DNA from: a virus
Length of the DNA: 64,000 nucleotides
Virus record (IMG/VR): IMGVR_UViG_3300033802_000277
Reading direction: 5' to 3' (one strand)
Shown here: positions 5,335-60,719 of the stretch, one piece after another
How positions within the stretch are numbered: position 1 is the first letter of the stretch
Layout of the letters: each line of letters starts with the position of its first letter
The notes under the pieces: generated by a model
Told to the model about the DNA's origin: nothing
The model's input: only the letters and a program-made list of their open reading frames with translations
Databases searched by the model: none
Position numbers and translations under genes: made by a program

Positions 5335-8300
5335 TTATATGACTCCCTTTCCCTTTAGGCGTTTTATAATAGTATTAGATACGTCTTCTGCTCCTTTTCT
5401 GTCGCCTATCACATTATCAATATTAATTACAATTTGATTTACAGCATTCTGATTCCCATTAGAATTCGTAAGCGGAGAAATTAATTTTGAAAAATCCATT
5501 AATCTTATTCCGTTTGCAATATTTCCGACAATATTATTAATTGGATTATTTTTTACAACAAGTTCTCCCAATTTTAAAATTGATAAACGTTCATCAGAAC
5601 CAAGATTAAGCATTTTATGTAATTTTTCAATTACAGGAGAACCTTTACCACCAACAATCCCACCGTTATGATATAATGGTAAATTATTTTTATACCAAAC
5701 ACCCTCAGCAGCATTATAAGTGGCTCCAATTTGTGATCCTAATTCTTGATTAGAACGTTCATAAGCGCTTCTCATGCTTGGATATTTGTGCCAAAGTTCG
5801 CTATTCATTTTCATTGATGCAATAATATTTCTTTCCTGATCATTCATTGGAATATAATAATTATTATTACTATTTCCAGTGTTTGAAGTTGTAACATTAA
5901 ACTTTAAATTACCAAGTTCTTTAAATTTCCTTATTAGTTCATCTACTTTTTTTATCAACGTATCGTTCAAGTTGTTAGCTATGTTTATGAATTCATTATT
6001 TAAAGACTGAGTAGCACTTACAAGTCCATTAGATAACCTGTTCATATTATCTAATAAATTATTTGAAATACTTTGACCAATTTCTCCACTATTCCTTAAT
6101 ATAAAGTTTTTAAATTCTTCAAATTTGGCTAATACATTTGATATATTTCCCTTCATTATTTCTTCGCGTATTTGATTGAATTCTCGTTCATTATTTATTA
6201 AATCATCGTAATATTGGTTGGTAATTTTTTTTAATTGATCCAATCTTTCTTTTTCTTTTTCAAAAGCCTGATCCTCTAATTCTTTTTGTTTATCCATATT
6301 TTTCTTTTTATCCTCTAATTGTTGTTGTAGATTTTTCTTTAATTGTTCCCTAGTTCTATTATTTTGAAATTCACTTATTTCTTCATTCTTTTCAGCTAAA
6401 CTTTTTTCTAATTCTGCTAATTCTGCTCTAGCCTCTTTGGAATTATTTAATCTTTTAACATCAATCTTTCTTTGAATCTCATCTCTTTCTTTAATTAATT
6501 CATTCAACCTTTTATTGTAATCTTCTTCGCTGGCCTGTTCATCAATAGCTTTTAATCTAGCATTGACAATTTCCTCATATTTACTTATTTCATCATCGAG
6601 CAATTTTATTTTTTCTTTATGTGCTTTATTAAGCGCATCCAGTTCATCTTCAATACCCTTAATTGCTATATCTCTTTGCTTTTCATACATTTCTTTATAA
6701 AAATCAATTACTTCATCTGCTAACTTTTTCGTTTGATCTTGCAATGATTTATTTGTATTTTTTATAGATGTAGCAATTTCAATTTGAGATAAAATAGATT
6801 GTCTCAATTGATCATTAAGTTTGCTCCATTCAGCCTCAGTAAGATTAACAGACTGCATTTGTTTACGAATAATTTGTTCGTGATTCTCTTCTGCTTTTAA
6901 TTTATTCTCTAATATTCTTACCTGATTTTGTAATTCATCAGAATATTCTTTTGAATTTTCTTCTAAAATTTTAAGTCGATCATTAGATATCGATAATTCG
7001 TCGTCATATTTCTTTACAACATCAGCAGCTTCATTAATTTGTGAATTTATTATTTCAAAATTTGTTTGAGAAATAACTTCATGAAAATCCCACCAAGAAT
7101 TTGACAACTCTCTAATTCGATCATTTAAAATTTTTGTTTGTTCTATTGTGAGATTACCATTTGCTAACTGCTCTCTAAGTGCTTCAGCTTCGTTATGAAC
7201 TATATCTTGCTTTTGTTTTAATAAGTCAATTTGTTTTTGTAATTCGTTTCTGTATTCTTGAGAAGTTTCATTGAATTTTTTGGTTTCTCGGTTTAATTCT
7301 TCAATTTGCTCATCTATATCTTCTAATTTCCTTTGAGTTTCATCCTTCAACAATTTATTAGTTTCTTCGAAAATACTATTAACATTTCTTAAAGATTCTT
7401 TAAAGTCATCAATCCAACTCGCTGATTTTTCATTTATTGCTTTATCTAAGTCTTCAAACAATTGAATATAGTAGTTAAATAACTCTTTTCTATTTTCAAG
7501 CCCTTGTTTTTGTTGTTCAAGTTGTGCTTTTATGGAATCAGATGTTTCACGACCAATTCTGTTATTCAAATTGTTTAATTGTTTTTCTAAATTATTTGCA
7601 TAATTAGCTATTTCTTCTTTTGATATATCTTCTATATTCCTACCTTGTCTAAAATCGGAAAAGTATTTGTCAAATTCAGGAATGATTTCGTTTTCACGTA
7701 TTGATCGAAGTTGTTCTGCAACTTCGTGATATTTATTCATTCGTTCTTCGAGAAGAGCGTTTAGTTGTTTTTCAAGTTCTATTCTTTTTGGAAGATCGCC
7801 TTCTAAATCAGCGATATCCATTTGATTTTTAGTGTCTAAAATTTGCTCATTTAGTGATTTTAATTGGTTTTCTGCGTCTTGAATTTGCTCTTTGAAAGTG
7901 GGTAACAAATTAAGGATTCTATCTATAAAAGTTCGTTCTTTAGAGGAACTAGAACCACTAGAAGTTCCGGCTTCCCTAAGACCAATACTCGATGCTTGTT
8001 TTAATGCCTCTATAGTTTTTAAATATTCATCTAACTTATCAACATTAGCCAAAGTTCTTAATCTTTTATCTCTTTCTACCATGTAGGCAGCAAAATCAGC
8101 GCCGAAACCAGTTCCACTTTCATCTATCATGGAATTGATTTGAGTATTCAAATCATCTAATTGTAGTAATAATTCTGCCTTTGCTTTTCCTACTTCTTTA
8201 ATACTTTGTATTTGAATACCATACATTTCAAGTTCTGCATTCAAAGCGTTCCTCATTTTTTCAAGTTCTTGTTCTCTCATGTTTAAACTATCTTGGAACG

Positions 8301-31163: not shown

Positions 31164-32216
31164 ATGAATTTGGCGACTAACAATGTAGTCAAAATTCATG
31201 ACAACAGCGTATATGATTACATCAAAATTTTTCTGGACAACAAAAGCATTGATAGCAACCACACAGCCGAAGAATATGAGCGCGATATTAGGCTTTTCTT
31301 TAAAACGTTACGCAATAAAGATATTGAACACCTCACAACTTCCGATCTGAAAGTATCTAATGCAGAGATGTTAAAGTATCAAACTTATCTGTCCAAGCAC
31401 CATCAACATAAAGACGGAATTGGTTACAGCAATATAAGTGTAAATCGAAAAATTTATACAATTCAAAGCCTTTATGAATTTTTGAGAGCAAATGACTTTG
31501 ATGTGAATCCACACGCACTAAAAATTAAACGTCTCGTTGAGGACAGAAAAGGTATTGGTATTTTAACGAATGAAGAAATGAAAGAGATGATTCGCCTTGC
31601 CAGATATGAACTTCATGATGGGTTAGAGAAGTCGATTTATTTCAAATTAGCACAAAGAACCAGTTTACGCGTAAGTGAAATCTTGTCGATAAAATACAGT
31701 GATATTACACAAGATCCCAACAACAAAGACATGTATATTATTAAAATCAAACAAAAAGGAGGGGATTTCATCGAAAAGGAAATCCATAAATCAATTTATG
31801 AATTGCTTGAACAAATCAAAAAGCCAAATAGTGATTATGTTTTCAAAATTACTAAAAACCAAATCAACGAAACAATTAAACGTCTTTGTAAAAAAATGGG
31901 TATTCCCGAAACTAGAAAAATATCCTCTCACAGTTTTAAAAAGGGTTCTGTAGAATTTGCCAAGGAATTTTCAAATGATCTGCATACTGCTCAACATCAA
32001 GCTGGACATAAAAGTGCAACAACCACTGATAAATACTATCTTAAAAAACCGAGAAACATCCTTGGTAGTGTATTAGATTTTCAAGTCGATGAACATGTTT
32101 TCGAGAAGTTGTCACACGAAGAATGTCTAAAACTTTTAAAAACTATGTCTGGTGGGATCGGCCACAGACTAAAAATGGAGGCTCAGAAAATTGTTAACAA
32201 CAGACAAACCAATTGA
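31164..32216 (+). CDS. Tyrosine recombinase-like protein (SPbeta YopP/YopR-like, possibly regulatory)
   Basis: SLRVSE, KQKGG, SSHSFK (HxxR>HxxK), AGHKSATTTDKYY. Confidence 0.85.
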   Translation: MNLATNNVVKIHDNSVYDYIKIFLDNKSIDSNHTAEEYERDIRLFFKTLRNKDIEHLTTSDLKVSNAEMLKYQTYLSKHHQHKDGIGYSNISVNRKIYTIQSLYEFLRANDFDVNPHALKIKRLVEDRKGIGILTNEEMKEMIRLARYELHDGLEKSIYFKLAQRTSLRVSEILSIKYSDITQDPNNKDMYIIKIKQKGGDFIEKEIHKSIYELLEQIKKPNSDYVFKITKNQINETIKRLCKKMGIPETRKISSHSFKKGSVEFAKEFSNDLHTAQHQAGHKSATTTDKYYLKKPRNILGSVLDFQVDEHVFEKLSHEECLKLLKTMSGGIGHRLKMEAQKIVNNRQTN

Positions 32217-36193: not shown

Positions 36194-37389
36194 CTTTGAC
36201 AGGTGGAGTGTAGATGTTAGGACGAATTTTGAGGTTAAATTTTCTGATAAAAATAATAAAAATTTGGAGGTGTAATTGATGGGGAATAGGAATATACCGG
36301 GGTGATGGGTTAGTGTAAAAAATTAATTATTTTTGTGTAGAAAAAATATAAAGATATGGTTGGGTGGGATTTTGTGTGAACAAGGCGAGTATAGGCAAGG
36401 TTACGGATACGTATTTTAAGACGCAAAATATAAATAAAAATAGTGGAAATTTGAATGGGAAATAACTTGGTAATGGTTTTATACCAGACTTGGGTTAATA
36501 CGTTTCAGAATGTCAATATGGGCGTCTGGTGAGGTGATGGATAGGGGAGTTAGAAATAAACAAGATGAAAGATGAGTGAAGTGTGAATCGTGAAAGTTTA
36601 ATTAGAAGTTGGGATTTAAGGAAAAATTAAGTAAAAGTGCAGGGAGAGAAAAACGGAGGAAAGTTGTTGGTAGATATGAGGATTGGGGAATGATTGACGA
36701 TCAATGGGTATTATAAGTTTCGTTGTTGAGATTGGGTGAACGAGTGAAAATTTATGGAGATCAAGAGGTTTTGAAAGATTTGAGAAGAAGTTTGATGGAT
36801 TGGATCGATAATGATATCGTAAAAGTTGCTGATTGGTATTGGGTTTGGGTGGGAAATTTGATGGAAAATTGAGATTTTATGAAAAAATGGGAAAATTGGC
36901 GGTGGTAAAAATCGGTTGAAAATAAGCAAGTTTAGCGAAACGCGCACGATGCGCGATGCGATGTGCGAGAAGGCGGGAGGAGGGTGAATCGGTGTAAATC
37001 CGAGTATACCTGTCGGAATAGAAGTGCTGTGGCCGTTTTAGAAAAAAATGGAAGAAATAGAAATGTAAACTATCCCCCCTCTTTTCAAAATGGGATGGCA
37101 AACATTGTAAAAATCAAGTCATATCATACGTTATGAACGGATATTGGGAAAAGATGGGAATTTAGAAAATGAGGAAAAGTTGATCTGTTAGATTGGGATA
37201 GTAACTAATTAAAATAAAGCGACTAAATAAAAATACACAAATCGAAAAATACAATGCGCTATTTTGATTAACCATAAAACCTACTAAAAACATCGGAATA
37301 GTAACAAAAACGCGCTGGCGCAACACTTATTAAAACTCATTGTAATAATTTTTCTTTAAAATTTTAAAAACAAAATATTAAAAAAACCA

Positions 37390-37418
37390 TTGACAAATAT
37401 ACAGTTTTAACTTATTAT
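37390..37418 (+). promoter_or_regulatory. SigA promoter opening the early accessory region
   Basis: TTGACA-17bp-TATTAT with an A-rich UP region. Confidence 0.75.
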
Positions 37419-37424
37419 TATATT

Positions 37425-37780
37425 AGAAATTAATACTAAGCACCTAGACCAAACACCAGTCCGTAACGCGCAGCTTGATAGCGGGCTAACTGTTGCGGCG
37501 GTCGATCCTTGACAAATAAATATCAGTCATTAGCGGTTACCCTAGCCCGCAGTATCAAAAGGGTACGCGACACAGCGCGGCAGCACGTGGCAGGAATTGG
37601 GAAGCCTGTCACGGCGACTATATGAGCAACGGCGAACGTCAAAAAAGGCGCTACGTGGCTATCTCACGTTGAAACGCTACGCCGCACGATGTATCATATA
37701 GGCACGGTAGGAGTCCGGCACAACACCCAAGACAGCAACAAGGCGATATCACGATCATCATGATTTACATCGCCTTTTGT
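37425..37780 (+). ncRNA. Unidentified structured leader RNA
   Basis: GC-rich, ORF-free island right after the promoter, with several complementary segments (see findings). Confidence 0.55.
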
Positions 37781-37860
37781 CTGTCTTTTGTGTTCCATTT
37801 GGAAATTTTAACCAAGGGAACAGAAAAGACAGACAAAAGCCTGTCTAAAAACCAAAATAT

Positions 37861-37876
37861 TGTTCCACGTGGAACA
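37861..37876. promoter_or_regulatory. parS: parS (Spo0J/ParB binding) site
   Basis: TGTTCCACGTGGAACA, a perfect palindrome close to the TGTTNCACGTGAAACA consensus. Confidence 0.85.
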
Positions 37877-37897
37877 ATTTAAAAGGAGTGTTTGTCA

Positions 37898-38119
37898 ATG
37901 CTTATGAATATCATTGCCGAAAAAGCCGCTAAACTGGCCTGCCAATTTGATCAAGATACTGGCTTTGAAATTTATAAAAATGAGTATCTTGATCAGTTGA
38001 CTGAAAAGTCACACCAATATTGGTTGCGCCAATGGATCGGAAATTTGGTCGAGGAGGGGAACAAAGAAGCAATCGAAATAATGAAGCTTATTATTCGTTT
38101 CAATTTGTCTCCCGCCTGA
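37898..38119 (+). CDS. Early hypothetical protein
   Basis: 73 aa; RBS AAAGGAG favours ATG 37898. Confidence 0.65.
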   Translation: MLMNIIAEKAAKLACQFDQDTGFEIYKNEYLDQLTEKSHQYWLRQWIGNLVEEGNKEAIEIMKLIIRFNLSPA

Positions 38120-38169
38120 TGATGGCTCGGTGGCTCCGGGCCGAATCCGGCAGCTTGCCGGTAGCGGGA
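38110..38169 (+). ncRNA. Type I hammerhead-like ribozyme with non-canonical core
   Basis: UCCCGC-CUGAUGA-U-GGCUCGG(UGGCU)CCGGGCC-GAA-U-CCGGC(AGCUU)GCCGG-UA-GCGGGA. Confidence 0.55.
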
Positions 38170-38194
38170 AGCCGCATAAAAGCAACGAGTTTAA

Positions 38195-38255
38195 TTTATT
38201 GCTTTTTAGCTCACATAACAGTTCCGTTGTGTGAGCAATAAAGGCAATAAATGCC
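38195..38255 (+). repeat. Intergenic hairpin family (CAUAAC/GUUGUG inner stem, UAAAGG outer stem), copy A
   Basis: Related copies at 38510-38570, 39098-39169 and 39821-39882; partial copies at 38742-38787, 42387-42420 and 46097-46135. Confidence 0.7.
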
Positions 38256-38280
38256 TAAATTTAATTAAGGAGGATTTTTT

Positions 38281-38505
38281 ATGTACGGAATTAAAGTAAA
38301 AACCTATTTTTATCAAGGCACTATCGGAGTGCCTCAAAAACCATTTATTGTAAAAAAGTTTCCCACTCGCGAAGAAGCTGTTCGCTGGCTGGAGGAATCC
38401 AGTCTCGAACAAACGGACAAAAACGAATGGAAGCCAGCAGGAACGTATTATCTTAGGCATGGCGAATATGCCAGACCAACATACTCTATTGTTGGTTGCC
38501 GATGA
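38281..38505 (+). CDS. Early hypothetical protein
   Basis: 74 aa with RBS AAGGAGG. Confidence 0.7.
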   Translation: MYGIKVKTYFYQGTIGVPQKPFIVKKFPTREEAVRWLEESSLEQTDKNEWKPAGTYYLRHGEYARPTYSIVGCR

Positions 38506-38591
38506 TTTATTTATTGCTTTTAAGACCGCATAACACTATGTTGTGCGGTCCATAAAGGCAATAAATTGCCATAAAAACAATATATTAATAA

Positions 38592-38607
38592 TGTTTCACG
38601 TAAAACA
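38592..38607. promoter_or_regulatory. parS: Second parS-like site
   Basis: TGTTTCACGTAAAACA, one mismatch to consensus. Confidence 0.65.
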
Positions 38608-38629
38608 TTTCTAGAAAGGAGTGAAAAAA

Positions 38630-38719
38630 ATGCGCTCTAAAATAGTCATTCTTACCTCTCGTATGGAGAGGTTGAAAAAGCTGAAAGATTCCTATCTTTA
38701 CGGTTATCTCATGTGGTAA
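38630..38719 (+). CDS. 29-aa peptide
   Basis: MRSKIVILTSRMERLKKLKDSYLYGYLMW with RBS GAAAGGAG; below the ORF-track cutoff. Confidence 0.45.
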   Translation: MRSKIVILTSRMERLKKLKDSYLYGYLMW

Positions 38720-38819
38720 CTGTGGTAGCGTAAAGCTACCACTTAAAAACAAGCCCATAACAGATAGGTTATAGGTTTGTTTTTAAGTTTTAATTACATA
38801 ACAGGAGGAATTAAAATTT

Positions 38820-39098
38820 ATGCGCATGTCGAACCGTGAAATCATCGCTAATGAGTTGCTTTTTCGTGGAATCAATTTTCCCTATGATGGGAACAATCTT
38901 CTCACTTATCAAGAGTGGAAAAAGCGCGGTTTTTACGTCCGAAAAGGCGAAAAAGCATTTTTGCAAGTTCCCTTGTGGACTCCGTGCCAAAAGGTTATCG
39001 AAAAAGATGGAAAGGAGGAAATACAAACATATTTTATCATGAAAAAAGCCAGCTTGTTCACTCATGAACAAGTAGAAAGAATAGCACAAACAGCATAA
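38820..39098 (+). CDS. ArdC N-terminal-like ssDNA-binding protein
   Basis: LLTYQEWKKRGFYVRKGEKA...LW...LFTHEQVE resembles the ArdC/DUF1738 motif pattern. Confidence 0.6.
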   Translation: MRMSNREIIANELLFRGINFPYDGNNLLTYQEWKKRGFYVRKGEKAFLQVPLWTPCQKVIEKDGKEEIQTYFIMKKASLFTHEQVERIAQTA

Positions 39099-39199
39099 AT
39101 TATAACCTTTTCGACTCCATAACAGCTTTATATAGTTGTTGTGGAGCCTATAAAGGTTATAATTTAACCTTTGATTTCTTTCACTATGGAGGGGAAAAT

Positions 39200-39529
39200 A
39201 TGCAAAAGAAGCTTATTATCAATATCCGTCCAATCATTTCCAGTTTACTTAAAGATTGGGACGGAGAAGGAAAGCAAAGTCAGTATATTAAACATAACAA
39301 AAAAATCATATTTGAATATATCGAAAATCTTATCAATGATATTTCGCTTCCGTATGATTTACAGTATAAAAATAAATACAAACTAGATATCGAAAATAGA
39401 GAAGTAATAGTCATATTCACATGGACAGAAGAAGAAAATATTTATGATTGGAGCGAAAGAATGAAGCGTAATTTGCAAGTTATTTCTGATTATATTTGGC
39501 AAAAAGGTTTAACTTGTATAATCGCTTAA
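39200..39529 (+). CDS. Early hypothetical protein
   Basis: 109 aa with RBS GGAGGGG; has a disrupted paralog at 44163. Confidence 0.7.
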   Translation: MQKKLIINIRPIISSLLKDWDGEGKQSQYIKHNKKIIFEYIENLINDISLPYDLQYKNKYKLDIENREVIVIFTWTEEENIYDWSERMKRNLQVISDYIWQKGLTCIIA

Positions 39530-39530
39530 T

Positions 39531-39601
39531 GTCGTCCCGGCGACTATAAACAGCGCATTAAGCCGGGAGCGTTAACCGCCATTTATGGCGGTTAGGTTGC
39601 G
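39531..39601 (+). ncRNA. Pistol ribozyme 1
   Basis: P1 GUCG-UCCCGG-CGAC, UAUAAACAG, P2 CGCA/UGCG, UUAAG-CCGGGA-GCG (pseudoknot to the P1 loop), P3 UUAACCGCC/GGCGGUUAG, scissile G39596-U39597. Confidence 0.9.
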
Positions 39602-39629
39602 ATATATTTATAACAGGGAGGCATTCGTA

Positions 39630-39812
39630 ATGCAAATTAAAATAACTGATTATTCCGATTCTCATTATTTAGTTATCGTTACCACTCGTAAAGGATATTC
39701 CTATGCTACAACATGGGCAAAAATGAATAACCCATTAGCAGAACAAGAAGTAAAACAAGCTTGGAAAGAGAATAGAAAAAACTTTGATCCTTGGTATGGT
39801 ATACTGCAATAA
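39630..39812 (+). CDS. Early hypothetical protein
   Basis: 60 aa from ATG 39630 (RBS GGGAGG), just 3' of pistol 1. Confidence 0.65.
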   Translation: MQIKITDYSDSHYLVIVTTRKGYSYATTWAKMNNPLAEQEVKQAWKENRKNFDPWYGILQ

Positions 39813-39909
39813 AAGTATAATTTTATAACCTTTACAGACTCCATAAATAAATGTTTGTGGAGTCGATAAAGGTTATAAAACCTAATTATATAACAGGAGG
39901 TTATTTAAA

Positions 39910-40053
39910 ATGCGAACAAAAAAGTGGTATCAAATTTATGGTACTGCGCCAGACGGAAAAGAATATTTATTGGCAAAGGTTAACAGTAAAGGAAATGCTT
40001 ACATTGTTGCGGAAGCTTTAAAAGCAAGTTATAAAAATGTATCTATAAAATAA
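39910..40053 (+). CDS. 47-aa hypothetical protein
   Basis: MRTKKWYQIYGTAPDGKEY..., RBS AGGAGG; below the ORF-track cutoff. Confidence 0.55.
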   Translation: MRTKKWYQIYGTAPDGKEYLLAKVNSKGNAYIVAEALKASYKNVSIK

Positions 40054-40107
40054 AAAAATAAGAATGATTTGATTTTATTTTTTAAAATAAATTATTAATA
40101 AAGGAGA

Positions 40108-40758
40108 ATGATAACTATGACCATGAAGAAAGTTTATGAGGAAGCAGTCCAAAAAATCCAAGCAGGAGGAAAATATACTTTATTTGGTTATAACAGTTTT
40201 GGTTTTCCGGTTATTATGCATACAACTATTCATAAGGCGTATATCGGATCATATGCACAATATAATCATACTTTAGTCATCGAACACCAACCAAAAAGAA
40301 AACGAACGGTTTACAAACAGCATTTGTTACCAGATGAAACGTTTATTTTATGGGAAGGATGGTTAAATATCGATAATAGCGATTTTTGGAAGACAGAAAG
40401 ACAAGAAGAAGTAACAGTCCGCAAAAGTCGTTTAGCGTTCGATAATCAATATATTAGGGAAAAATTGCAAAATGTCAAAGTTAAACCTATAGCAATCCTT
40501 GATCGTGATTATCACATTAATGTAAATAAAATTGAGTTTATTTATCAAGTAGTAACAGAAGATGGTTCGGAATACTATACGTTTGACGAGTTGTTTTCTA
40601 AATATAATTTTGTCGATTTGAACAAGCGCGGAAGAATTGAATTGCATAACCAACCTTGCATTGCTGGTCTTATCGGCCCAATGTGGGGAGGATACGAGGA
40701 CGGGAAAGCAGTAATTCGTTACGAAACACAAGAAATGTATCAATTAATGTCTAATTAA
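40108..40758 (+). CDS. Early hypothetical protein
   Basis: 216 aa with RBS AAAGGAG. Confidence 0.75.
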   Translation: MITMTMKKVYEEAVQKIQAGGKYTLFGYNSFGFPVIMHTTIHKAYIGSYAQYNHTLVIEHQPKRKRTVYKQHLLPDETFILWEGWLNIDNSDFWKTERQEEVTVRKSRLAFDNQYIREKLQNVKVKPIAILDRDYHINVNKIEFIYQVVTEDGSEYYTFDELFSKYNFVDLNKRGRIELHNQPCIAGLIGPMWGGYEDGKAVIRYETQEMYQLMSN

Positions 40759-40772
40759 ACATAAAATATATA

Positions 40773-40848
40773 ACACGTCTGGGCGTGTCTAAACAGCGCC
40801 TTAAGCCGGGAGCGTTTAGAGGCCGTTATATCAGCCTCTAAAGTGGTG
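40773..40848 (+). ncRNA. Pistol ribozyme 2
   Basis: P1 ACACG-UCUGGG-CGUGU, CUAAACAG, P2 CGCC/GGUG, UUAAG-CCGGGA-GCG, P3 UUUAGAGGC/GCCUCUAAA, scissile G40843-U40844; pseudoknot has one G-G mismatch. Confidence 0.82.
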
Positions 40849-40893
40849 ATAACAGCCAAAATATTACATAATGTTTAACAGGAGGTTGTAAAA

Positions 40894-41064
40894 ATGTCTC
40901 GCACAGTAAAAGCTATCGTCCGTATCAACGGACGCGAAACGCAAGTTGAATATTATCTGCCGCGCATGCACTTGTGGCAGACAATCGAAACGATTAAAAA
41001 GCAGGTGCAGCAGGACTATGACCTCATGCACTATGAGGTGTCATTTATTCGTTTTGTCGATTAG
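40894..41064 (+). CDS. 56-aa protein flanked by two pistol ribozymes
   Basis: MSRTVKAIVRINGRETQVEYYLPRMHLW..., RBS AGGAGG. Confidence 0.6.
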   Translation: MSRTVKAIVRINGRETQVEYYLPRMHLWQTIETIKKQVQQDYDLMHYEVSFIRFVD

Positions 41065-41135
41065 TCGTCCCGGCGACTCTAAACAGCGCCTTAAGCCGGG
41101 AGCGCCTAACCGCTTTAACAGCGGTTAGAGTGGCG
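41063..41135 (+). ncRNA. Pistol ribozyme 3
   Basis: P1 AGUCG-UCCCGG-CGACU, CUAAACAG, P2 CGCC/GGCG, UUAAG-CCGGGA-GCG, P3 CUAACCGCU/AGCGGUUAG, scissile G41130-U41131. Confidence 0.9.
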
Positions 41136-41169
41136 AACAAGACATAATATTTACATGGAGGAATGTTTC

Positions 41170-42369
41170 ATGCAAACAAAACAATACGTATTGAATCGCG
41201 AAACGGGAAAGGTTGAATTGCACTTTGAAAAATCAGAATACCAATCTTTAACAGAACAACAAAAAGCAGAATTAAAGCGGTTTTTTCTTTGGAGTCCGTC
41301 CCGTTCTGCTTGGGTGTCTAGAAGCACAAATAATCACTATATGGCTATTCGGATTGCTGAAAAATTGGGCTTTACTGATGGCGGAAAAATAGGCGAAAGA
41401 CTTTCTTTTGCCGAACAATTGGAAAGAAAAGCAGAAAAAGCGGAAGCACGTGCGGAACGTTACGAAAAATATGCAGAAAATGCAGAAAAACGCGCGGAAA
41501 TGTTGCAAGCAGAAATGAACGAGCATTTACGAAATCATGACATTGCTTTTTTCACTCAACCGATCATTGCAGGACATGCTGGTTCGGAACGGTTCGCGCG
41601 TCAACGGCAACGGATTTATGATCGTTATCATAAAGGTTTTGAAGAATATCGCAAAAGTGAATATTTCCGACAAAAAGCCATGACAGCGCAGCAAACGGCG
41701 AGTATGGCGCAATTAAAAGACAAGACATATCTTAATAACAGAATCGAGGAATGCAACGCAAACATTCGTAAATATGAAAAATTGATTGTAACAGCAGAAG
41801 AACAAAATAACGAGAAATGGTTAGAGAGTTTACTTGAAAAAATGGAGTATGAAATAGATAAGCTTGCATTTTTTCAAAATTGTTTGGATGAATTGGGAGG
41901 TATACAATACAACAAAGATAACATAAAACCCGGTTATCTCGTCAAAATTCGTGGTTATTGGGATGTTGTAGTAAAAGCAAATACAAAAACCGTCGAAGTA
42001 AAATCGTCTTATGTTCCGTATACATTGAAATATCCATATGCGGAAATTCAGGAAGTGAAAATTCCTGAAAACTGGACAGAACAAAAACAAATAATTGAAA
42101 ATCCATTCAATGTTGGCGATATCTTAGTGCGTCATAACGTTGCCGGAAATATTATAATAGCAGCTTTTAAGGTTGTAAAAGTAACAGAAAAAAGCGTAAC
42201 TATTCAGCAAATTGCCATTGAAGACGGAAAACCCATTAAAGATAAATTTATAAACGACAAGCAGGAAAGGAGGCAAATAAAAAAGAATACTAAAAACGAA
42301 TACGTCGTTAATTATGATAATTGGTATTTGTATCCTTACAAACAAAAAGAAAACGAACAAAGCGCATAA
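41170..42369 (+). CDS. DUF3560-like domain protein
   Basis: KAEARAERYEKYA...QPIIAGHAGSERFARQRQRI...KSEYFRQKA resembles DUF3560; RBS GGAGGA favours ATG 41170. Confidence 0.65.
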   Translation: MQTKQYVLNRETGKVELHFEKSEYQSLTEQQKAELKRFFLWSPSRSAWVSRSTNNHYMAIRIAEKLGFTDGGKIGERLSFAEQLERKAEKAEARAERYEKYAENAEKRAEMLQAEMNEHLRNHDIAFFTQPIIAGHAGSERFARQRQRIYDRYHKGFEEYRKSEYFRQKAMTAQQTASMAQLKDKTYLNNRIEECNANIRKYEKLIVTAEEQNNEKWLESLLEKMEYEIDKLAFFQNCLDELGGIQYNKDNIKPGYLVKIRGYWDVVVKANTKTVEVKSSYVPYTLKYPYAEIQEVKIPENWTEQKQIIENPFNVGDILVRHNVAGNIIIAAFKVVKVTEKSVTIQQIAIEDGKPIKDKFINDKQERRQIKKNTKNEYVVNYDNWYLYPYKQKENEQSA

Positions 42370-42496
42370 TAATTACAAGCTATTTAGTCCGCATAACAGG
42401 TTTAAGCTTGTTGTGCGGACAATACATTAAAAACAATATATTAATAATGTATCATTTAAAACATATTTAAATTAATAACAATGAGGAGGAATAAAA

Positions 42497-42847
42497 ATGA
42501 AAAAATATCCGATTAAAAGGGAAATTCTGGAAAATTTGCGATTTAATTCTCCGTATACTTGCGAAGAGGATGAAAGATATCCATCTGAATTTTATTTTGG
42601 AGGAAAAAGGATATATCTTTCTCTATACGTTAGCAGTTTTGGTGAAAGATGGTTCAAAGAAAAAGGAGTATCTTTGGCGATAACAATAAACGATTATGAT
42701 AAGGAGGTATTTATATCTATTTACACACATATGAAACTTTATAAAAAAATCATTAGAGAAGAAGGTTATTTAATCAATCTGATCGAAGATAAGAATTATA
42801 TCATTGATGAAAGAGAAGGGGAAACGGGAGAAATATTTTTGATTTAA
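42497..42847 (+). CDS. Hypothetical protein
   Basis: 116 aa with RBS GAGGAGG. Confidence 0.7.
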   Translation: MKKYPIKREILENLRFNSPYTCEEDERYPSEFYFGGKRIYLSLYVSSFGERWFKEKGVSLAITINDYDKEVFISIYTHMKLYKKIIREEGYLINLIEDKNYIIDEREGETGEIFLI

Positions 42848-42980
42848 AAAATAAATATTATCCTTTCCGCACTTGCGGAAAGGATAATAAACTTTTATCA
42901 TAAAGAGAATGATATTTTACAGTAAAATACTCATTTCATGGGATATAATAGATAATAATAAACCTATGGAGGGAGTTTAT

Positions 42981-48168: not shown

Positions 48169-49233
48169 ATGAGCAAAAATCTTGGAGAAAAATTTAAAGA
48201 AGCTTTGGCGCGTATCGAAGAAATTGAAAAGTCAAAGCGCGACGTGCTTATTAAGCCCAGTAACTTACATATGGATAACAGAGGATCGCTTCATATCGAC
48301 GGACTTGGGCCAATCGATTTCACAAAAACAGGATTTCAACATTTTTGCATGAAAGCAGATTTGCCATCCAGCTATATGATGAAATTATTGGACACTGATG
48401 GAAAATCTGCTTCAGAAATTGAAGAGGATTTAGAAACGTTCAAAATCAACATGAGGCGCGGTTTGAATCGCCTCAAAGAAGACAAAGAGTATTTCTTCCG
48501 CACAATTCAACATGGTAACAGCAATAAGTTTAGAGTGCGGGCAATCTTTTCGGACAACTACAAAGTGTATGACAATCTGCCAATTTTAAAACAATTGCAA
48601 AATTTTGACGGAGAAAGACTTGAAACACAAGGATTTTCGGTTACAAGTGATTTCATGGATATCCGCTTTACGTTACCTGATTTAAAAACTTCAATTGGAA
48701 AATTGCCACAACATGAAGTACGTTTTGGTGTAACAGACGATATCATCTTTCCCGGTATTCACTTACGAAACAGTGAGACGGGAGGAAGTAAGATTAAGGG
48801 CAGATTTATTATCTATCGCCTTGTTTGCACAAATGGTTTATCCAATCCAAGACATGAATTCACGATAATTGATCAAAAGCACATGGGGGATTTCGACGTA
48901 ACAGAAATTAATGATCGTTTAGGAAGCATAACAGTAGAAGCCAAAAGTCTGTTCAATAATTATGTTGATAGAATACAAGACGCAAAAACAAGAACGGCAG
49001 AACCAGATGAAATATTTAATTTTATCCAAAATAGAAAAAGTATCACTAAGAAAATGACTGAAGTAGTCCGAAAAAATTGGGAAACTGAGCAACGAATGGG
49101 GAGAACAAAATTCGACTATATTAATGCAGTAACAGCAGGTGCTAGAGATTGGGAAAATGAAACTAAAGATTACACTGGAAGGCTTAATTTAGAGGATGTT
49201 GCAGGAGAGTTGTTATTTAGTAAGGCAATTTAA
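48169..49233 (+). CDS. DUF932-like protein
   Basis: GIHLRNSETGGSK...YRLVCTNGL...KHMG resembles the DUF932 motif. Confidence 0.65.
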   Translation: MSKNLGEKFKEALARIEEIEKSKRDVLIKPSNLHMDNRGSLHIDGLGPIDFTKTGFQHFCMKADLPSSYMMKLLDTDGKSASEIEEDLETFKINMRRGLNRLKEDKEYFFRTIQHGNSNKFRVRAIFSDNYKVYDNLPILKQLQNFDGERLETQGFSVTSDFMDIRFTLPDLKTSIGKLPQHEVRFGVTDDIIFPGIHLRNSETGGSKIKGRFIIYRLVCTNGLSNPRHEFTIIDQKHMGDFDVTEINDRLGSITVEAKSLFNNYVDRIQDAKTRTAEPDEIFNFIQNRKSITKKMTEVVRKNWETEQRMGRTKFDYINAVTAGARDWENETKDYTGRLNLEDVAGELLFSKAI

Positions 49234-51681: not shown

Positions 51682-52794
51682 ATGGAACAAGTATTGGCGT
51701 TAGAAGAAAATGTTAGCGTAAAGGAAGGAAATCAGGTTGCTTATGACGAAAATATGTTTGAAAAAGAAGGGAGTGTTACTCAGGTGGGAACTGTTGAAAA
51801 TATGTCTTTGAGAGAACGGATTGAAAAAGAAAGAATCGCTAAACAGCCAGCGATTCAAATTGGATTGCGGTCGTTAGTTAAAAATCCTTCAAAGTTAAAT
51901 TTCAATCTTGTGATTCAGCGTAATCTTCGTTGGACACGCGAACAGAAAAGTTCTCTTATTGAATCTGTTATTTTGGGATATCCGATTCCAGCAATATATT
52001 CGATCAAAAGCGAAGATAATAGCTTGTGGGTGTTGGATGGAAAACAAAGATTGACTACGCTTATTAGCTTTTGCAAAGACGAATGGGAATTAAGTGAATT
52101 ACCAAACGCTTTTGGTGTTGATATTACTGGAAAAAAATTCTCAGAACTTCCTGAGGAGTTTCAAGAGTTTTTTGATGAACTAACATTGACGTTTTATCAA
52201 TTTGAGCGACTTACCATAGATCAACGAGATCAATTGTTTAAGCGACTTAACAGTGGAACACCGCTTTCAGCAATAGAACTAACACGTTCTATTCTTGGTT
52301 CTGAGTGGTTAGAATATATTGATAGCATAGCGCAAAAACCATTTTTTGAAATGGCGGCATTAACTGATAACCAGCGTGACAAATTTGTTGATCAGGAATT
52401 AATTTTACAGGTAATTGGTTTGGTTACTGGAAGACTAAATGATATGAGTAGCAAACACGTAAGAGAATTTTCAATCGATTTACGTGTTAATGGGATGTCG
52501 GATGATGACAAGAAGAAAGTTTCTGATGTATTCGATTATTTAACAGACGCATTCGGAAATCTGGAAGAAAAACACAGAAAGAAAATACTTAAGAAAAATG
52601 ACATTATTGGATTGGCTGGTGCTGCTGCTGAATTGATGAACGATATCGATGCAGACACATTTGGCAGAAGAACCGCTTCATTGATTGTGAAAAATACTGG
52701 ATCGTATAGAGATACAAAAACGAGCGGTAGCGCCAAGGAATCTAATGTTAAGAAGCGTATTCAACTTTTGATTCAAGCAGTAAAAGAAGAATAA
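51682..52794 (+). CDS. DUF262 (ParB-like/GmrSD N-terminal) protein
   Basis: IQRNLRW...SSLIESVILGYPIP...VLDGKQRLTTL...LFKRLNSGTPLS. Confidence 0.8.
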   Translation: MEQVLALEENVSVKEGNQVAYDENMFEKEGSVTQVGTVENMSLRERIEKERIAKQPAIQIGLRSLVKNPSKLNFNLVIQRNLRWTREQKSSLIESVILGYPIPAIYSIKSEDNSLWVLDGKQRLTTLISFCKDEWELSELPNAFGVDITGKKFSELPEEFQEFFDELTLTFYQFERLTIDQRDQLFKRLNSGTPLSAIELTRSILGSEWLEYIDSIAQKPFFEMAALTDNQRDKFVDQELILQVIGLVTGRLNDMSSKHVREFSIDLRVNGMSDDDKKKVSDVFDYLTDAFGNLEEKHRKKILKKNDIIGLAGAAAELMNDIDADTFGRRTASLIVKNTGSYRDTKTSGSAKESNVKKRIQLLIQAVKEE

Positions 52795-60299: not shown

Positions 60300-60719
60300 A
60301 TGATTGCAGTTGCAGAAAGGATGAGGCCAACTCGGAGTTATGAAATTCAAAAATTATACATTAAAAAATTAGATGTAAGACAATGGGATATTTGGATGGC
60401 TGATCTGTCAGGGGGTACAGTCGGTTCCGAACAATCAGGAAAAAGACCTGTGCTTGTACTTCAAAATGATATTGGTAACAAATTTAGCACAACAATTATT
60501 GTTGCAGCGATAACATCTCAAAATAAAACTAAACTTCCTACCCATGTTGAACTGAAAGCTGAAAGATATAATTTAGAAAAAGATTCAGTTATCATGTTAG
60601 AACAATTAAGAACGATTGACAAACTTAGACTGGAAGAGAAAATAACAACGCTTGATAATGAAGCAATAAATAAAGTATTGAATGCTCTCGATGTGTCGTT
60701 AGGAAGAAAAAGAGCATAA
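60300..60719 (+). CDS. mazF: MazF/PemK (NdoA-like) endoribonuclease, orphan
   Basis: ADLSGGTVGSEQSGKRPVLVLQNDIGNKFS...VAAIT...LPTHV...DSVIMLEQLRTIDK. Confidence 0.9.
   Translation: MIAVAERMRPTRSYEIQKLYIKKLDVRQWDIWMADLSGGTVGSEQSGKRPVLVLQNDIGNKFSTTIIVAAITSQNKTKLPTHVELKAERYNLEKDSVIMLEQLRTIDKLRLEEKITTLDNEAINKVLNALDVSLGRKRA

Follow-up and report, generated by a model that had tools for sequence, protein, structure and literature searches.

How is the transcript of a phage operon handled when nearly every gap between its genes carries a structured RNA element, and what do elements of quite different classes have in common? The question is raised by positions 37390-42889 of a 64,000-nt stretch of DNA from IMG/VR virus record IMGVR_UViG_3300033802_000277, the whole of which is called the window below. 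A preliminary description, made from the sequence, had placed there a hammerhead-like element, three pistol ribozymes and a family of hairpins that together would process the operon into separate mRNAs. With a confidence a little above even, we hold that the operon is punctuated by interchangeable ribozymes and hairpins that cut or insulate the transcript and also serve as joints for gene exchange. The direct observations behind this reading are the elements themselves, their covariation and placement, the swapping of one class for another among related phages (designated by L numbers) and the synteny breakpoints at element edges. The elements and the probable limits of the transcription unit are as follows.

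37390-37418, plus strand: strong sigma-A-type promoter, TTGACA-17-TATTAT, 11/12 consensus positions
38110-38169, plus strand: type I hammerhead homologue, predicted cleavage after 38163
38194-38252, plus strand: two-tier hairpin hp1; family model 85 bits; dG -29.7, z -7.8
38509-38566, plus strand: two-tier hairpin hp2; family model 81 bits; z -8.0
38741-38788, plus strand: hairpin hp3, an outlier; dG -22.1, z -7.0; no family-model match at E<=1
39096-39166, plus strand: two-tier hairpin hp4, overlapping a stop codon; family model 71 bits; z -9.4
39530-39601, plus strand: pistol 1, canonical, with P1, pseudoknot and P2 all paired; RF02679 66.2 bits; predicted cleavage 39596/39597
39821-39880, plus strand: two-tier hairpin hp5; family model 79 bits; z -10.6
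40773-40848, plus strand: pistol 2, chimeric; RF02679 59.7 bits; predicted cleavage 40843/40844
41063-41135, plus strand: pistol 3, starting within the upstream stop codon; RF02679 38.4 bits (41063-41129); predicted cleavage 41130/41131
42387-42420, plus strand: hairpin hp6, upper tier only; 27.3 bits over model positions 16-50; z -7.8
42856-42889: terminator-like perfect 15-bp hairpin, probable end of the unit

The promoter at 37390 is the sole 11/12 match on the plus strand of 36.5-48 kb, in agreement with the earlier claim of a single strong promoter, and the hairpin at 42856-42889 is the first convincing plus-strand terminator 3' of it. Between them lie eleven genes of 29-399 amino acids (aa), each with its own Shine-Dalgarno sequence. 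With this promoter and this terminator, it is plausible that 37390-42889 is one operon of ~5.4 kb, co-transcribed as had been proposed.

An RNA element is present at 9/10 internal gene junctions, the exception being 40054-40107, so the claim that nearly every gap carries one is borne out. Four junctions hold ribozymes (one hammerhead and three pistols), which make up 4/9 elements. Elements start between 3 nt inside and 20 nt past the upstream stop codon; the exception is hp1, which lies in the same gap as the hammerhead and begins 74 nt after the stop. Most elements end 19-45 nt before the next start (64 nt for hp2 and 76 nt for hp6), that is, shortly 5' of the ribosome-binding site, as the preliminary description had stated. 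Specifically, the predicted pistol cuts fall 33, 50 and 39 nt before the starts, the last value becoming 24 nt if the gene of the DUF3560 protein starts at 41155, and the hairpins leave 28-33 nt before the next start, in the same range as the pistol cuts. The matching distances to stops and starts therefore indicate that ribozymes and hairpins are positionally equivalent.

Pistols were assigned with the Rfam RF02679 covariance model (gathering score 34.5 bits), and the three that had been claimed at 39531, 40773 and 41063 all score above this cut-off. Stems P1, P2 and P3 and the cleavage-site G-U between P3 and the P2 3' strand are present in 3/3 copies; P2 of pistol 3 was extended by hand to 41135, and a C.A is found at the base of its P3. 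The six pseudoknot pairs that join the P1 loop to the P2-P3 junction are perfect in pistols 1 and 3 and in relatives, and occur in four covarying versions across copies (UCCCGG/CCGGGA, UCUGGG/CCCAGA, UUCCGG/CCGGAA and UCUGAG/CUCAGA). The pistol fold is therefore under selection, with pistol 2 as the exception: its UCUGGG loop faces CCGGGA, giving one wobble and one G.G mismatch among six pairs.

The element at 38110 contains the CUGAUGA and GAA core of a hammerhead with stems of 6, 7 and 6 bp, an open stem I and A as H17. Homologues are found at the same kind of junction in relatives, one in L003 and two in L004 (L004a and L004b), and an extra U after A9 is common to the window, L003 and L004a copies. 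Stem III covaries among the four hammerheads (CUCCC/GGGAG, CGCCC/GGGCG and CCGGG/CCCGG; CCGGCA/UGCCGG in the window). In 4/4 copies the GGCU of loop II has an invariant complement, AGCC, just 3' of stem I, with which it can pair, and in 3/4 the core UGA doubles as the stop codon of the upstream gene. Canonical cores throughout are found in two relatives' copies, and L004b has an additional core hairpin. Positions 15.1/16.1 are U.U in the window copy only and A-U in L003, L004a and L004b (canonical GAAAC...GUC).

Homologues were sought with a strict type I descriptor; a covariance model was dropped, the MAFFT registers of stem III being inconsistent. Across all collected sequences the descriptor finds only the window element, the L003 and L004 homologues and one unrelated copy in L048, so the 38110 element is not a chance match. 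Rfam hammerhead models give no match in the window at E<=10, nor in relatives at E<=0.5, canonical copies included, and evidently miss this variant. The earlier assignment thus stands as a type I homologue with covarying stem III, but one with no Rfam match and with U.U at 15.1/16.1.

Several side observations concern the hammerheads. At 3202-3283 of L004, the CUGACGA core is separated from stem II by an extra hairpin (GCGC-GAAG-GCGC plus CUUU), and the remainder is canonical. The L048 copy (~1622-1683), from an uncultured Clostridia genome, is independent, fully canonical for type I and located 4.4 kb 5' of a DUF3560 gene. After cleavage at the predicted site in the window, the downstream RNA would start with GCGG-GAAG-CCGC (38164-38175), which could refold as a small 5'-terminal hairpin in competition with stem I and the loop II pseudoknot; this stretch is nearly invariant in the four hammerheads, with one G-to-A change in L003.

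Hairpins hp1, hp2, hp4 and hp5 form one family, with fold energies of -30 to -35 kcal/mol (z -7.8 to -10.6) and a family-defining sequence pattern that has 4 matches versus 0.00 expected. In each, a lower stem of 13 bp and an upper stem of 11-13 bp (24-27 bp in total) enclose an internal loop of 3x3 or 3x4. Sequence is conserved at three places: CUUU/AAAGG atop the lower stem, the AU of the 3' loop strand and the upper-stem CAUAAC/GUUGUG. Among 12 non-redundant members, 96.9% of cells are paired and both sides have changed at 17/24 pairs; 0/500 shuffles give pairing as high, and slid registers are ~45% paired. Six covarying members had been claimed for the window: four covary strongly, but hp6 has the upper tier only and hp3, which has only CAUAACAG in common with the family, is an outlier. 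Two U.G wobbles are conserved, and the model scores higher on the sense strand in relatives that were excluded from model building; therefore, the sense strand is the folding strand. With the family covariance model, further members are found only in the same operon region of relatives and in the isolate-derived provirus L020. A scan of viral contigs with the hairpin pattern gave 18 stretches, real only in the clade of the window and in L020 and otherwise due to chance, and the hairpins match no Rfam family.

The hairpins do not correspond to other classes of element considered. They lack the U-run of an intrinsic terminator in their flanks, and no family member is called as a plus-strand terminator; the sole terminator call that overlaps a hairpin (38242-38256) is a 5-bp side helix within hp1. 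Identity with the PeSL elements of T4-type phages was rejected, as no promoter-like hexamer pair lies within or abutting the hairpins. Integron attC sites were also rejected: CAUAAC/GUUGUG is located in the upper stem near the loop, not at the base, each half is one base off RYYYAAC/GTTRRRY, and the recombinase-like gene lies 5 kb from the hairpins, not adjacent to them. Readings as a miniature inverted-repeat transposable element with target duplication or as single-stranded-DNA promoters were rejected as well, and SPBRE of SPbeta is a 15-bp repressor operator on DNA, unlike the two-tier hairpin.

Since the hairpins take the same positions as known ribozymes, and ribozyme classes cluster in phage neighbourhoods (PMC4604425), they might themselves be a new class of self-cleaving ribozyme, and their stems and the 3' side of the internal loop (N-A-U) are indeed conserved. 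We consider this very improbable, because a near-continuous 24-27-bp helix with a 3x3 loop has no junction or pseudoknot for an active site, and because the internal-loop sequence varies (UUA/AAU, UAA/CAU, UCG/CUAU and ACA/GAU).

Comparison of relatives shows that the classes replace one another. At the junction that precedes the DUF3560 gene, there is a pistol in the window and L003, a type P5 twister in L011, a two-tier hairpin in L008 and nothing structured in L004 and L006. The L011 twister (RF02684, 5917-5981) scores 53.5 bits versus a gathering score of 37.6 and is directly 5' of the gene. The occurrence of pistol, twister, hairpin or nothing at one junction fits selection for a function of the junction, most simply cutting or insulation. 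The hatchet ribozyme gave no match in relatives, but the control search was also empty everywhere, so this result is uninformative.

The element edges also coincide with the limits of homology among relatives. Blocks common to the window and L003 are 38111-38577, 38768-39603, 39821-39895, 40748-40865 and 41066-42943, and their boundaries fall at the hammerhead 5' edge, the hp2 3' edge, inside hp3, at the pistol 1 3' edge, at both hp5 edges and at pistols 2 and 3. Genes between the shared blocks are unrelated or replaced. Homology to L004 is often restricted to the hammerhead or a pistol alone, and near-identical pairs of elements flank single cassettes (hp1/hp2, hp4/hp5 and pistols 2/3). L003 has a single pistol here (5908-5980), which matches pistol 2 in the 5' flank, P1 and loop and pistol 3 in P3, the 3' flank and the ribosome-binding site. 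The cassette of the 56-aa gene is therefore bounded within the pistol cores. It was gained or lost by recombination inside the cores, and the pseudoknot mismatch in pistol 2 is the scar.

These data raise the alternative that the elements are chiefly recombination joints or selfish portable intergenic modules of the PeSL kind, whose cleavage or stabilising activity is incidental or decaying. The breakpoints on element edges, the element-only homology to L004, the scarred chimera next to a cassette that is absent from L003, and the near-identical pairs around single cassettes all agree with it, as do the defects in two of the four ribozymes and the precedent of PeSL (PMC2839356, PMC4122927). 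However, compensatory changes keep the pseudoknots, stem III and both hairpin tiers, which argues for selection on the RNA fold and not merely on DNA homology; the conserved U.G wobbles likewise indicate a folded sense strand; and different ribozyme classes at one junction cannot be mutual recombination substrates. We regard this alternative as unlikely.

The flanking of the 56-aa gene by pistols 2 and 3 allows another reading, in which the two ribozymes would excise the gene (40844-41130) with ligatable ends and the product would be joined into a circular mRNA. Spliced or circular products were raised as a possibility by Perreault et al. (PMC3088659). This outcome is scarcely to be expected here: five related phage records gave no RtcB, the activity of pistol 2 is probably reduced, and the insertion of a cassette between pistol halves explains the arrangement, which is absent from the closest relative.

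For the punctuated operon, we propose the following mechanism, in which co-transcription, cleavage in vivo, the involvement of RNase III and the insulating effect are inferred. Transcription would run ~5.4 kb from 37390 to the hairpin at 42856-42889. Each element would abut the upstream stop and leave a leader of ~20-45 nt with a free ribosome-binding site. Cleavage by the four ribozymes would take place co-transcriptionally or shortly afterwards; the upstream product would carry a folded ribozyme and a cyclic phosphate at its 3' end, and the downstream product would start with a 5'-OH. The two-tier hairpins would play an equivalent role, most likely as substrates of host RNase III, otherwise as uncut blocks to exonucleases. 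The stability and translation of each cistron would thereby become independent of its neighbours. In addition, the elements would act as homologous joints for cassette exchange among related phages, since it is the elements, and not the genes, that are conserved.

The hairpins have the shape of T7 R1.1 and SP82-type signals, namely a helix of at least ~20 bp with a small internal loop, between cistrons. In B. subtilis, the classic targets of RNase III are stable stem-loops that contain small internal bulges (PMC4838370). Lacking catalytic features, the hairpins would either be cut by an enzyme of the host, such as RNase III, or stay uncut; no phage-encoded RNase III was found in five related phage records, so the enzyme would have to come from the host. 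The preliminary description had called the system largely protein-independent, which is not borne out, as ribozymes account for less than half of the elements and two of them have predicted activity-lowering defects. What stands of its proposal that RNA elements process the operon are the ribozyme genes at four junctions and a plausible single unit, but not the independence from protein.

A further feature of the locus is the word TAACAG, which occurs 60:3 on the sense versus the antisense strand across 38.1-59.3 kb (21 kb), mostly after A or G. Inside genes it is found 33 times versus 10.0 +/- 2.6 after synonymous shuffling (~3-fold), and outside genes its density is 3.3 per kb versus 0.14 in control loci (~20-fold); it is not enriched in the structural arm of the window. 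The bias is present in every relative with ribozymes or hairpins (L003, L004, L006, L008, L011 and L020, the last without a pistol) and in no others. Clade-wide, 16/140 TAA stops read TAA-CAG. The word brackets the intergenic hairpins of L020, abuts the Shine-Dalgarno sequence in places (AUAACAGGAGG) and makes up the conserved 5' strand of the upper stem in the hairpins, where it is largely base-paired; its accessibility is no higher than that of composition-matched hexamers (p = 0.56). We found no account of the hexamer in the literature. Complementarity to the tRNA-Asn anticodon loop was judged coincidental, and a Chi- or KOPS-like role was rejected, as the other replication arm does not carry the complement.

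One explanation of these counts is that the two-tier hairpins are bound by a sequence-specific factor, from phage or host, that recognises TAACAG (CAUAAC paired to GUUGUG), with clade-specific regulation or cutting of early transcripts, possibly jointly with the dispersed copies of the word, and that they are not generic RNase III sites. It would account for the conservation of the upper-stem sequence and U.G wobble while the rest covaries, and for the strand bias, the in-gene excess, the frequent TAA-CAG stops and the intergenic density of a word confined to relatives with hairpins or ribozymes. Nevertheless, the analysis yielded no candidate factor. The phage MazF closely resembles B. subtilis EndoA (E 1e-37); the EndoA site is UACAU, which shows no bias, and the link between TAACAG and MazF is one of co-occurrence only. 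As the word is also not extra accessible and largely paired in the hairpins, we think this explanation quite unlikely. A broader and still tentative possibility is that ribozymes, hairpins and TAACAG together constitute a clade-specific 'plug-and-play' cassette grammar, in which any element would close and insulate a cassette, conserved elements would be crossover points and a dedicated factor would read TAACAG.

Several points weigh against the view that the operon is punctuated by elements that cut or insulate. First, loci of DUF3560 genes in Paenibacillus, Brevibacillus and other genomes have no ribozymes, hairpins or TAACAG bias, and the elements are therefore not required for expressing such genes. 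Second, the window hammerhead is a genuine hammerhead gene of which this copy is probably weak, because of its U.U at 15.1/16.1: a natural hammerhead with U15.1-A16.1 cleaves less efficiently, and mutants at 15.1/16.1 are at least 10-fold less active (PMC3088659). Likewise, the activity of pistol 2 is probably lowered by its mismatched pseudoknot, whose disruption causes a substantial loss of pistol activity in vitro (PMC4604425). Third, the hairpins are assigned to RNase III by shape, and this enzyme does not account for the strongly conserved CAUAAC/GUUGUG and AUAAAGG, which hint at a sequence-specific partner. Fourth, weak internal transcription starts could exist near 42427, a promoter-like 9/12 site, and near 38571, to which it is related in sequence. 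Finally, the sequencing runs that contain the window sequence are DNA metagenomes only (phyllosphere, bioreactor and soil).

The genes of the operon and the other features of its 5' region, all on the plus strand, are as follows.

37562-37729, plus strand: conserved core of a structured leader RNA, ~170 nt
37764-37849, plus strand: long imperfect hairpin at the leader 3' end, 36-nt arms, 83% complementary
37898-38119, plus strand: gene 1, 73 aa, no family; stop codon TGA shared with the hammerhead core (UGA)
38281-38505, plus strand: gene 2, 74 aa, between hp1 and hp2
38572-38613, plus strand: 42-nt repeat, 88% identical to its second copy at 42428-42469; the parS-like palindrome 38592-38607 lies inside it
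38630-38719, plus strand: candidate 29-aa open reading frame with an AAAGGAG Shine-Dalgarno, read from sequence
38820-39098, plus strand: gene 4, 92 aa, ArdC N-terminal-like domain (PF08401 28.8 bits, E 1.5e-6; phrog_7245 anti-restriction)
39200-39529, plus strand: gene 5, 109 aa
39630-39812, plus strand: gene 6, 60 aa
39910-40053, plus strand: gene 7, 47 aa
40108-40758, plus strand: gene 8, 216 aa, preceded by the only junction that holds no element (40054-40107)
40894-41064, plus strand: gene 9, 56 aa, the cassette missing in L003 and bounded by pistols 2 and 3
41170-42369, plus strand: gene 10, DUF3560 protein, 399 aa from the Shine-Dalgarno-bearing start; PF12083 49.5 bits
42497-42847, plus strand: gene 11, 116 aa

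The operon had been described as the first to be injected and as encoding anti-defence proteins, neither of which is borne out. The sole hint of anti-defence is the 92-aa ArdC-N-like protein (28.8 bits), and the polarity of injection is addressed by none of the findings; the operon is 17-30 kb away from an end in the only complete relative that has terminal repeats.

The structured leader that had been claimed is confirmed as a covarying core conserved in two relatives. The core is 81% identical to L003 and 74% to L004, has a multi-helix predicted fold and shows compensatory changes on both sides at 16/52 predicted pairs, among three sequences only. It matched no Rfam family, and a viral-contig scan with its invariant 21-mer gave the L003 and L004 contigs and no others. 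The hairpin at the leader 3' end is specific to the window and not homologous to L003. One idea is that the leader may affect read-through of the many downstream hairpins.

Two kinds of repeat lie in the same region. An AT-rich repeat of ~20 nt (AAAAACAAnATATTAAnAA) occurs in three copies, at 37364-37384, 38571-38591 and 42427-42447, and the -35 of the strong promoter follows directly after the first. A role as an operator or UP-like element is possible, and the recombinase-fold gene at 31164-32216 makes an analogy with the SPBRE/MrpR operator of SPbeta conceivable. Palindromes at 37861-37876 and 38592-38607 are one mismatch each from the B. subtilis parS consensus TGTTNCACGTGAAACA and directly upstream of a ribosome-binding site (4 strand-matches versus 0.12 expected); the repeat at 42428-42469 contains a decayed version of the second.

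The window has ~31% G+C and is part of a large tailed phage or prophage. Structural genes, including a 2186-aa tape-measure gene, occupy the minus strand of 1-31 kb, while the plus strand from 31 kb carries an integrase-family gene, a RecD2-like helicase gene and then a long series of small genes. Open reading frames divergent from the 37390 promoter match no Pfam family. Farther along the plus strand are a CI/LexA-like repressor and the MazF toxin, and the phage is therefore temperate.

60300-60719: MazF/PemK toxin, E about 1e-37 to solved B. subtilis EndoA/YdcE structures

MazF homologues are found in all six related phage records examined. A DUF932 protein (48169-49233) and a GmrSD_N (DUF262) protein (51682-52794) are also encoded farther down the plus strand; both are gene types frequent in mobile-element accessory regions. 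Public phage and plasmid collections gave no DNA or protein match to the window. Related viral contigs reach 149-178 kb, one with terminal repeats, and more distant relatives of the DUF3560 gene are found in Paenibacillus, Brevibacillus, Neobacillus and Bacillus genomes, one adjoining BsrG RNA, a mark of SPbeta-like prophages. The window most likely belongs to a large (about 130-180 kb) temperate, SPbeta-like tailed phage, in a clade of phages of low-GC Firmicutes. The window phage is known from metagenomes only, and its relative L020 is a provirus from an isolate genome that could serve as an experimental system.

The roles of self-cleaving ribozymes of bacteria and phages are still called largely elusive (PMC6765202). 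Here the same junctions hold pistol, twister, hammerhead, hairpin or nothing, and some ribozyme copies are weakened. This natural experiment permits direct tests of which function is selected: cutting, stabilising, insulating or recombining.

The closest known systems are the clustered ribozymes of prophages, which flank single genes, have been proposed to process long transcripts, including around ardA, and were found to cleave in vitro when part of 2-kb transcripts (Perreault et al. 2011, PMC3088659). The pistol class itself was discovered through the clustering of ribozyme classes in phage neighbourhoods (PMC4604425, which cites Weinberg et al. 2015 for clustered phage ribozymes; also treated in the review PMC6765202). 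As in the prophage clusters, several ribozymes lie between small genes, more than one class occurs per neighbourhood, an anti-restriction-type gene stands among them (ardA there, the ArdC-N-like gene here), and the proposed role is the same, conversion of a long transcript into gene-length mRNAs; the ribozyme-processing idea for phage operons is thus not new and dates from 2011 (PMC3088659). Unlike those clusters, more than half of the junctions here hold covarying non-catalytic hairpins, ribozyme, hairpin and nothing are swapped at one junction, and element edges are cassette breakpoints. New in this locus are the single junction with pistol, twister, hairpin or nothing across relatives, the fall of synteny breakpoints on the edges of elements, with one pistol that is a chimera, and the co-occurrence of the element system with TAACAG on the sense strand. 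Also added are a covarying hairpin family absent from Rfam and a structured leader RNA, both specific to one clade of large temperate phages.

In T7 early mRNA, the RNase III sites are intercistronic hairpins with upper and lower stems around a small internal loop. The hairpins here resemble the T7 and SP82 signals, in shape only, in being intercistronic, with about two or more helical turns and a small internal loop, and cutting would similarly leave a 3' hairpin on the upstream mRNA. They differ in the conserved upper-stem sequence with its U.G wobble and in the presence of ribozymes in the same operon. For SP82, the processing of early mRNA by RNase III is taken from Panganiban & Whiteley 1983 and Mitra & Bechhofer 1994 as cited in PMC4838370. 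The PeSL of T4-type phages (PMC2839356, PMC4122927) are likewise repeated intergenic stem-loops among small novel genes that mark insertions, deletions and replacements between close relatives. However, a PeSL combines an early promoter with a terminator-like stem-loop, whereas here there are no promoter hexamers and no U-tract, and some elements are ribozymes.

Finally, the hammerhead and hairpin at 38110-38252 invite comparison with a synthetic device. Insulators of the RiboJ type consist of a hammerhead followed by a hairpin just upstream of the ribosome-binding site. The pair at 38110-38252 would similarly free expression from its upstream context, but it is a natural arrangement with a probably weak hammerhead. 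Set among the known systems, the locus belongs with the ribozyme-punctuated phage operons described since 2011, as a dense member rich in hairpins.

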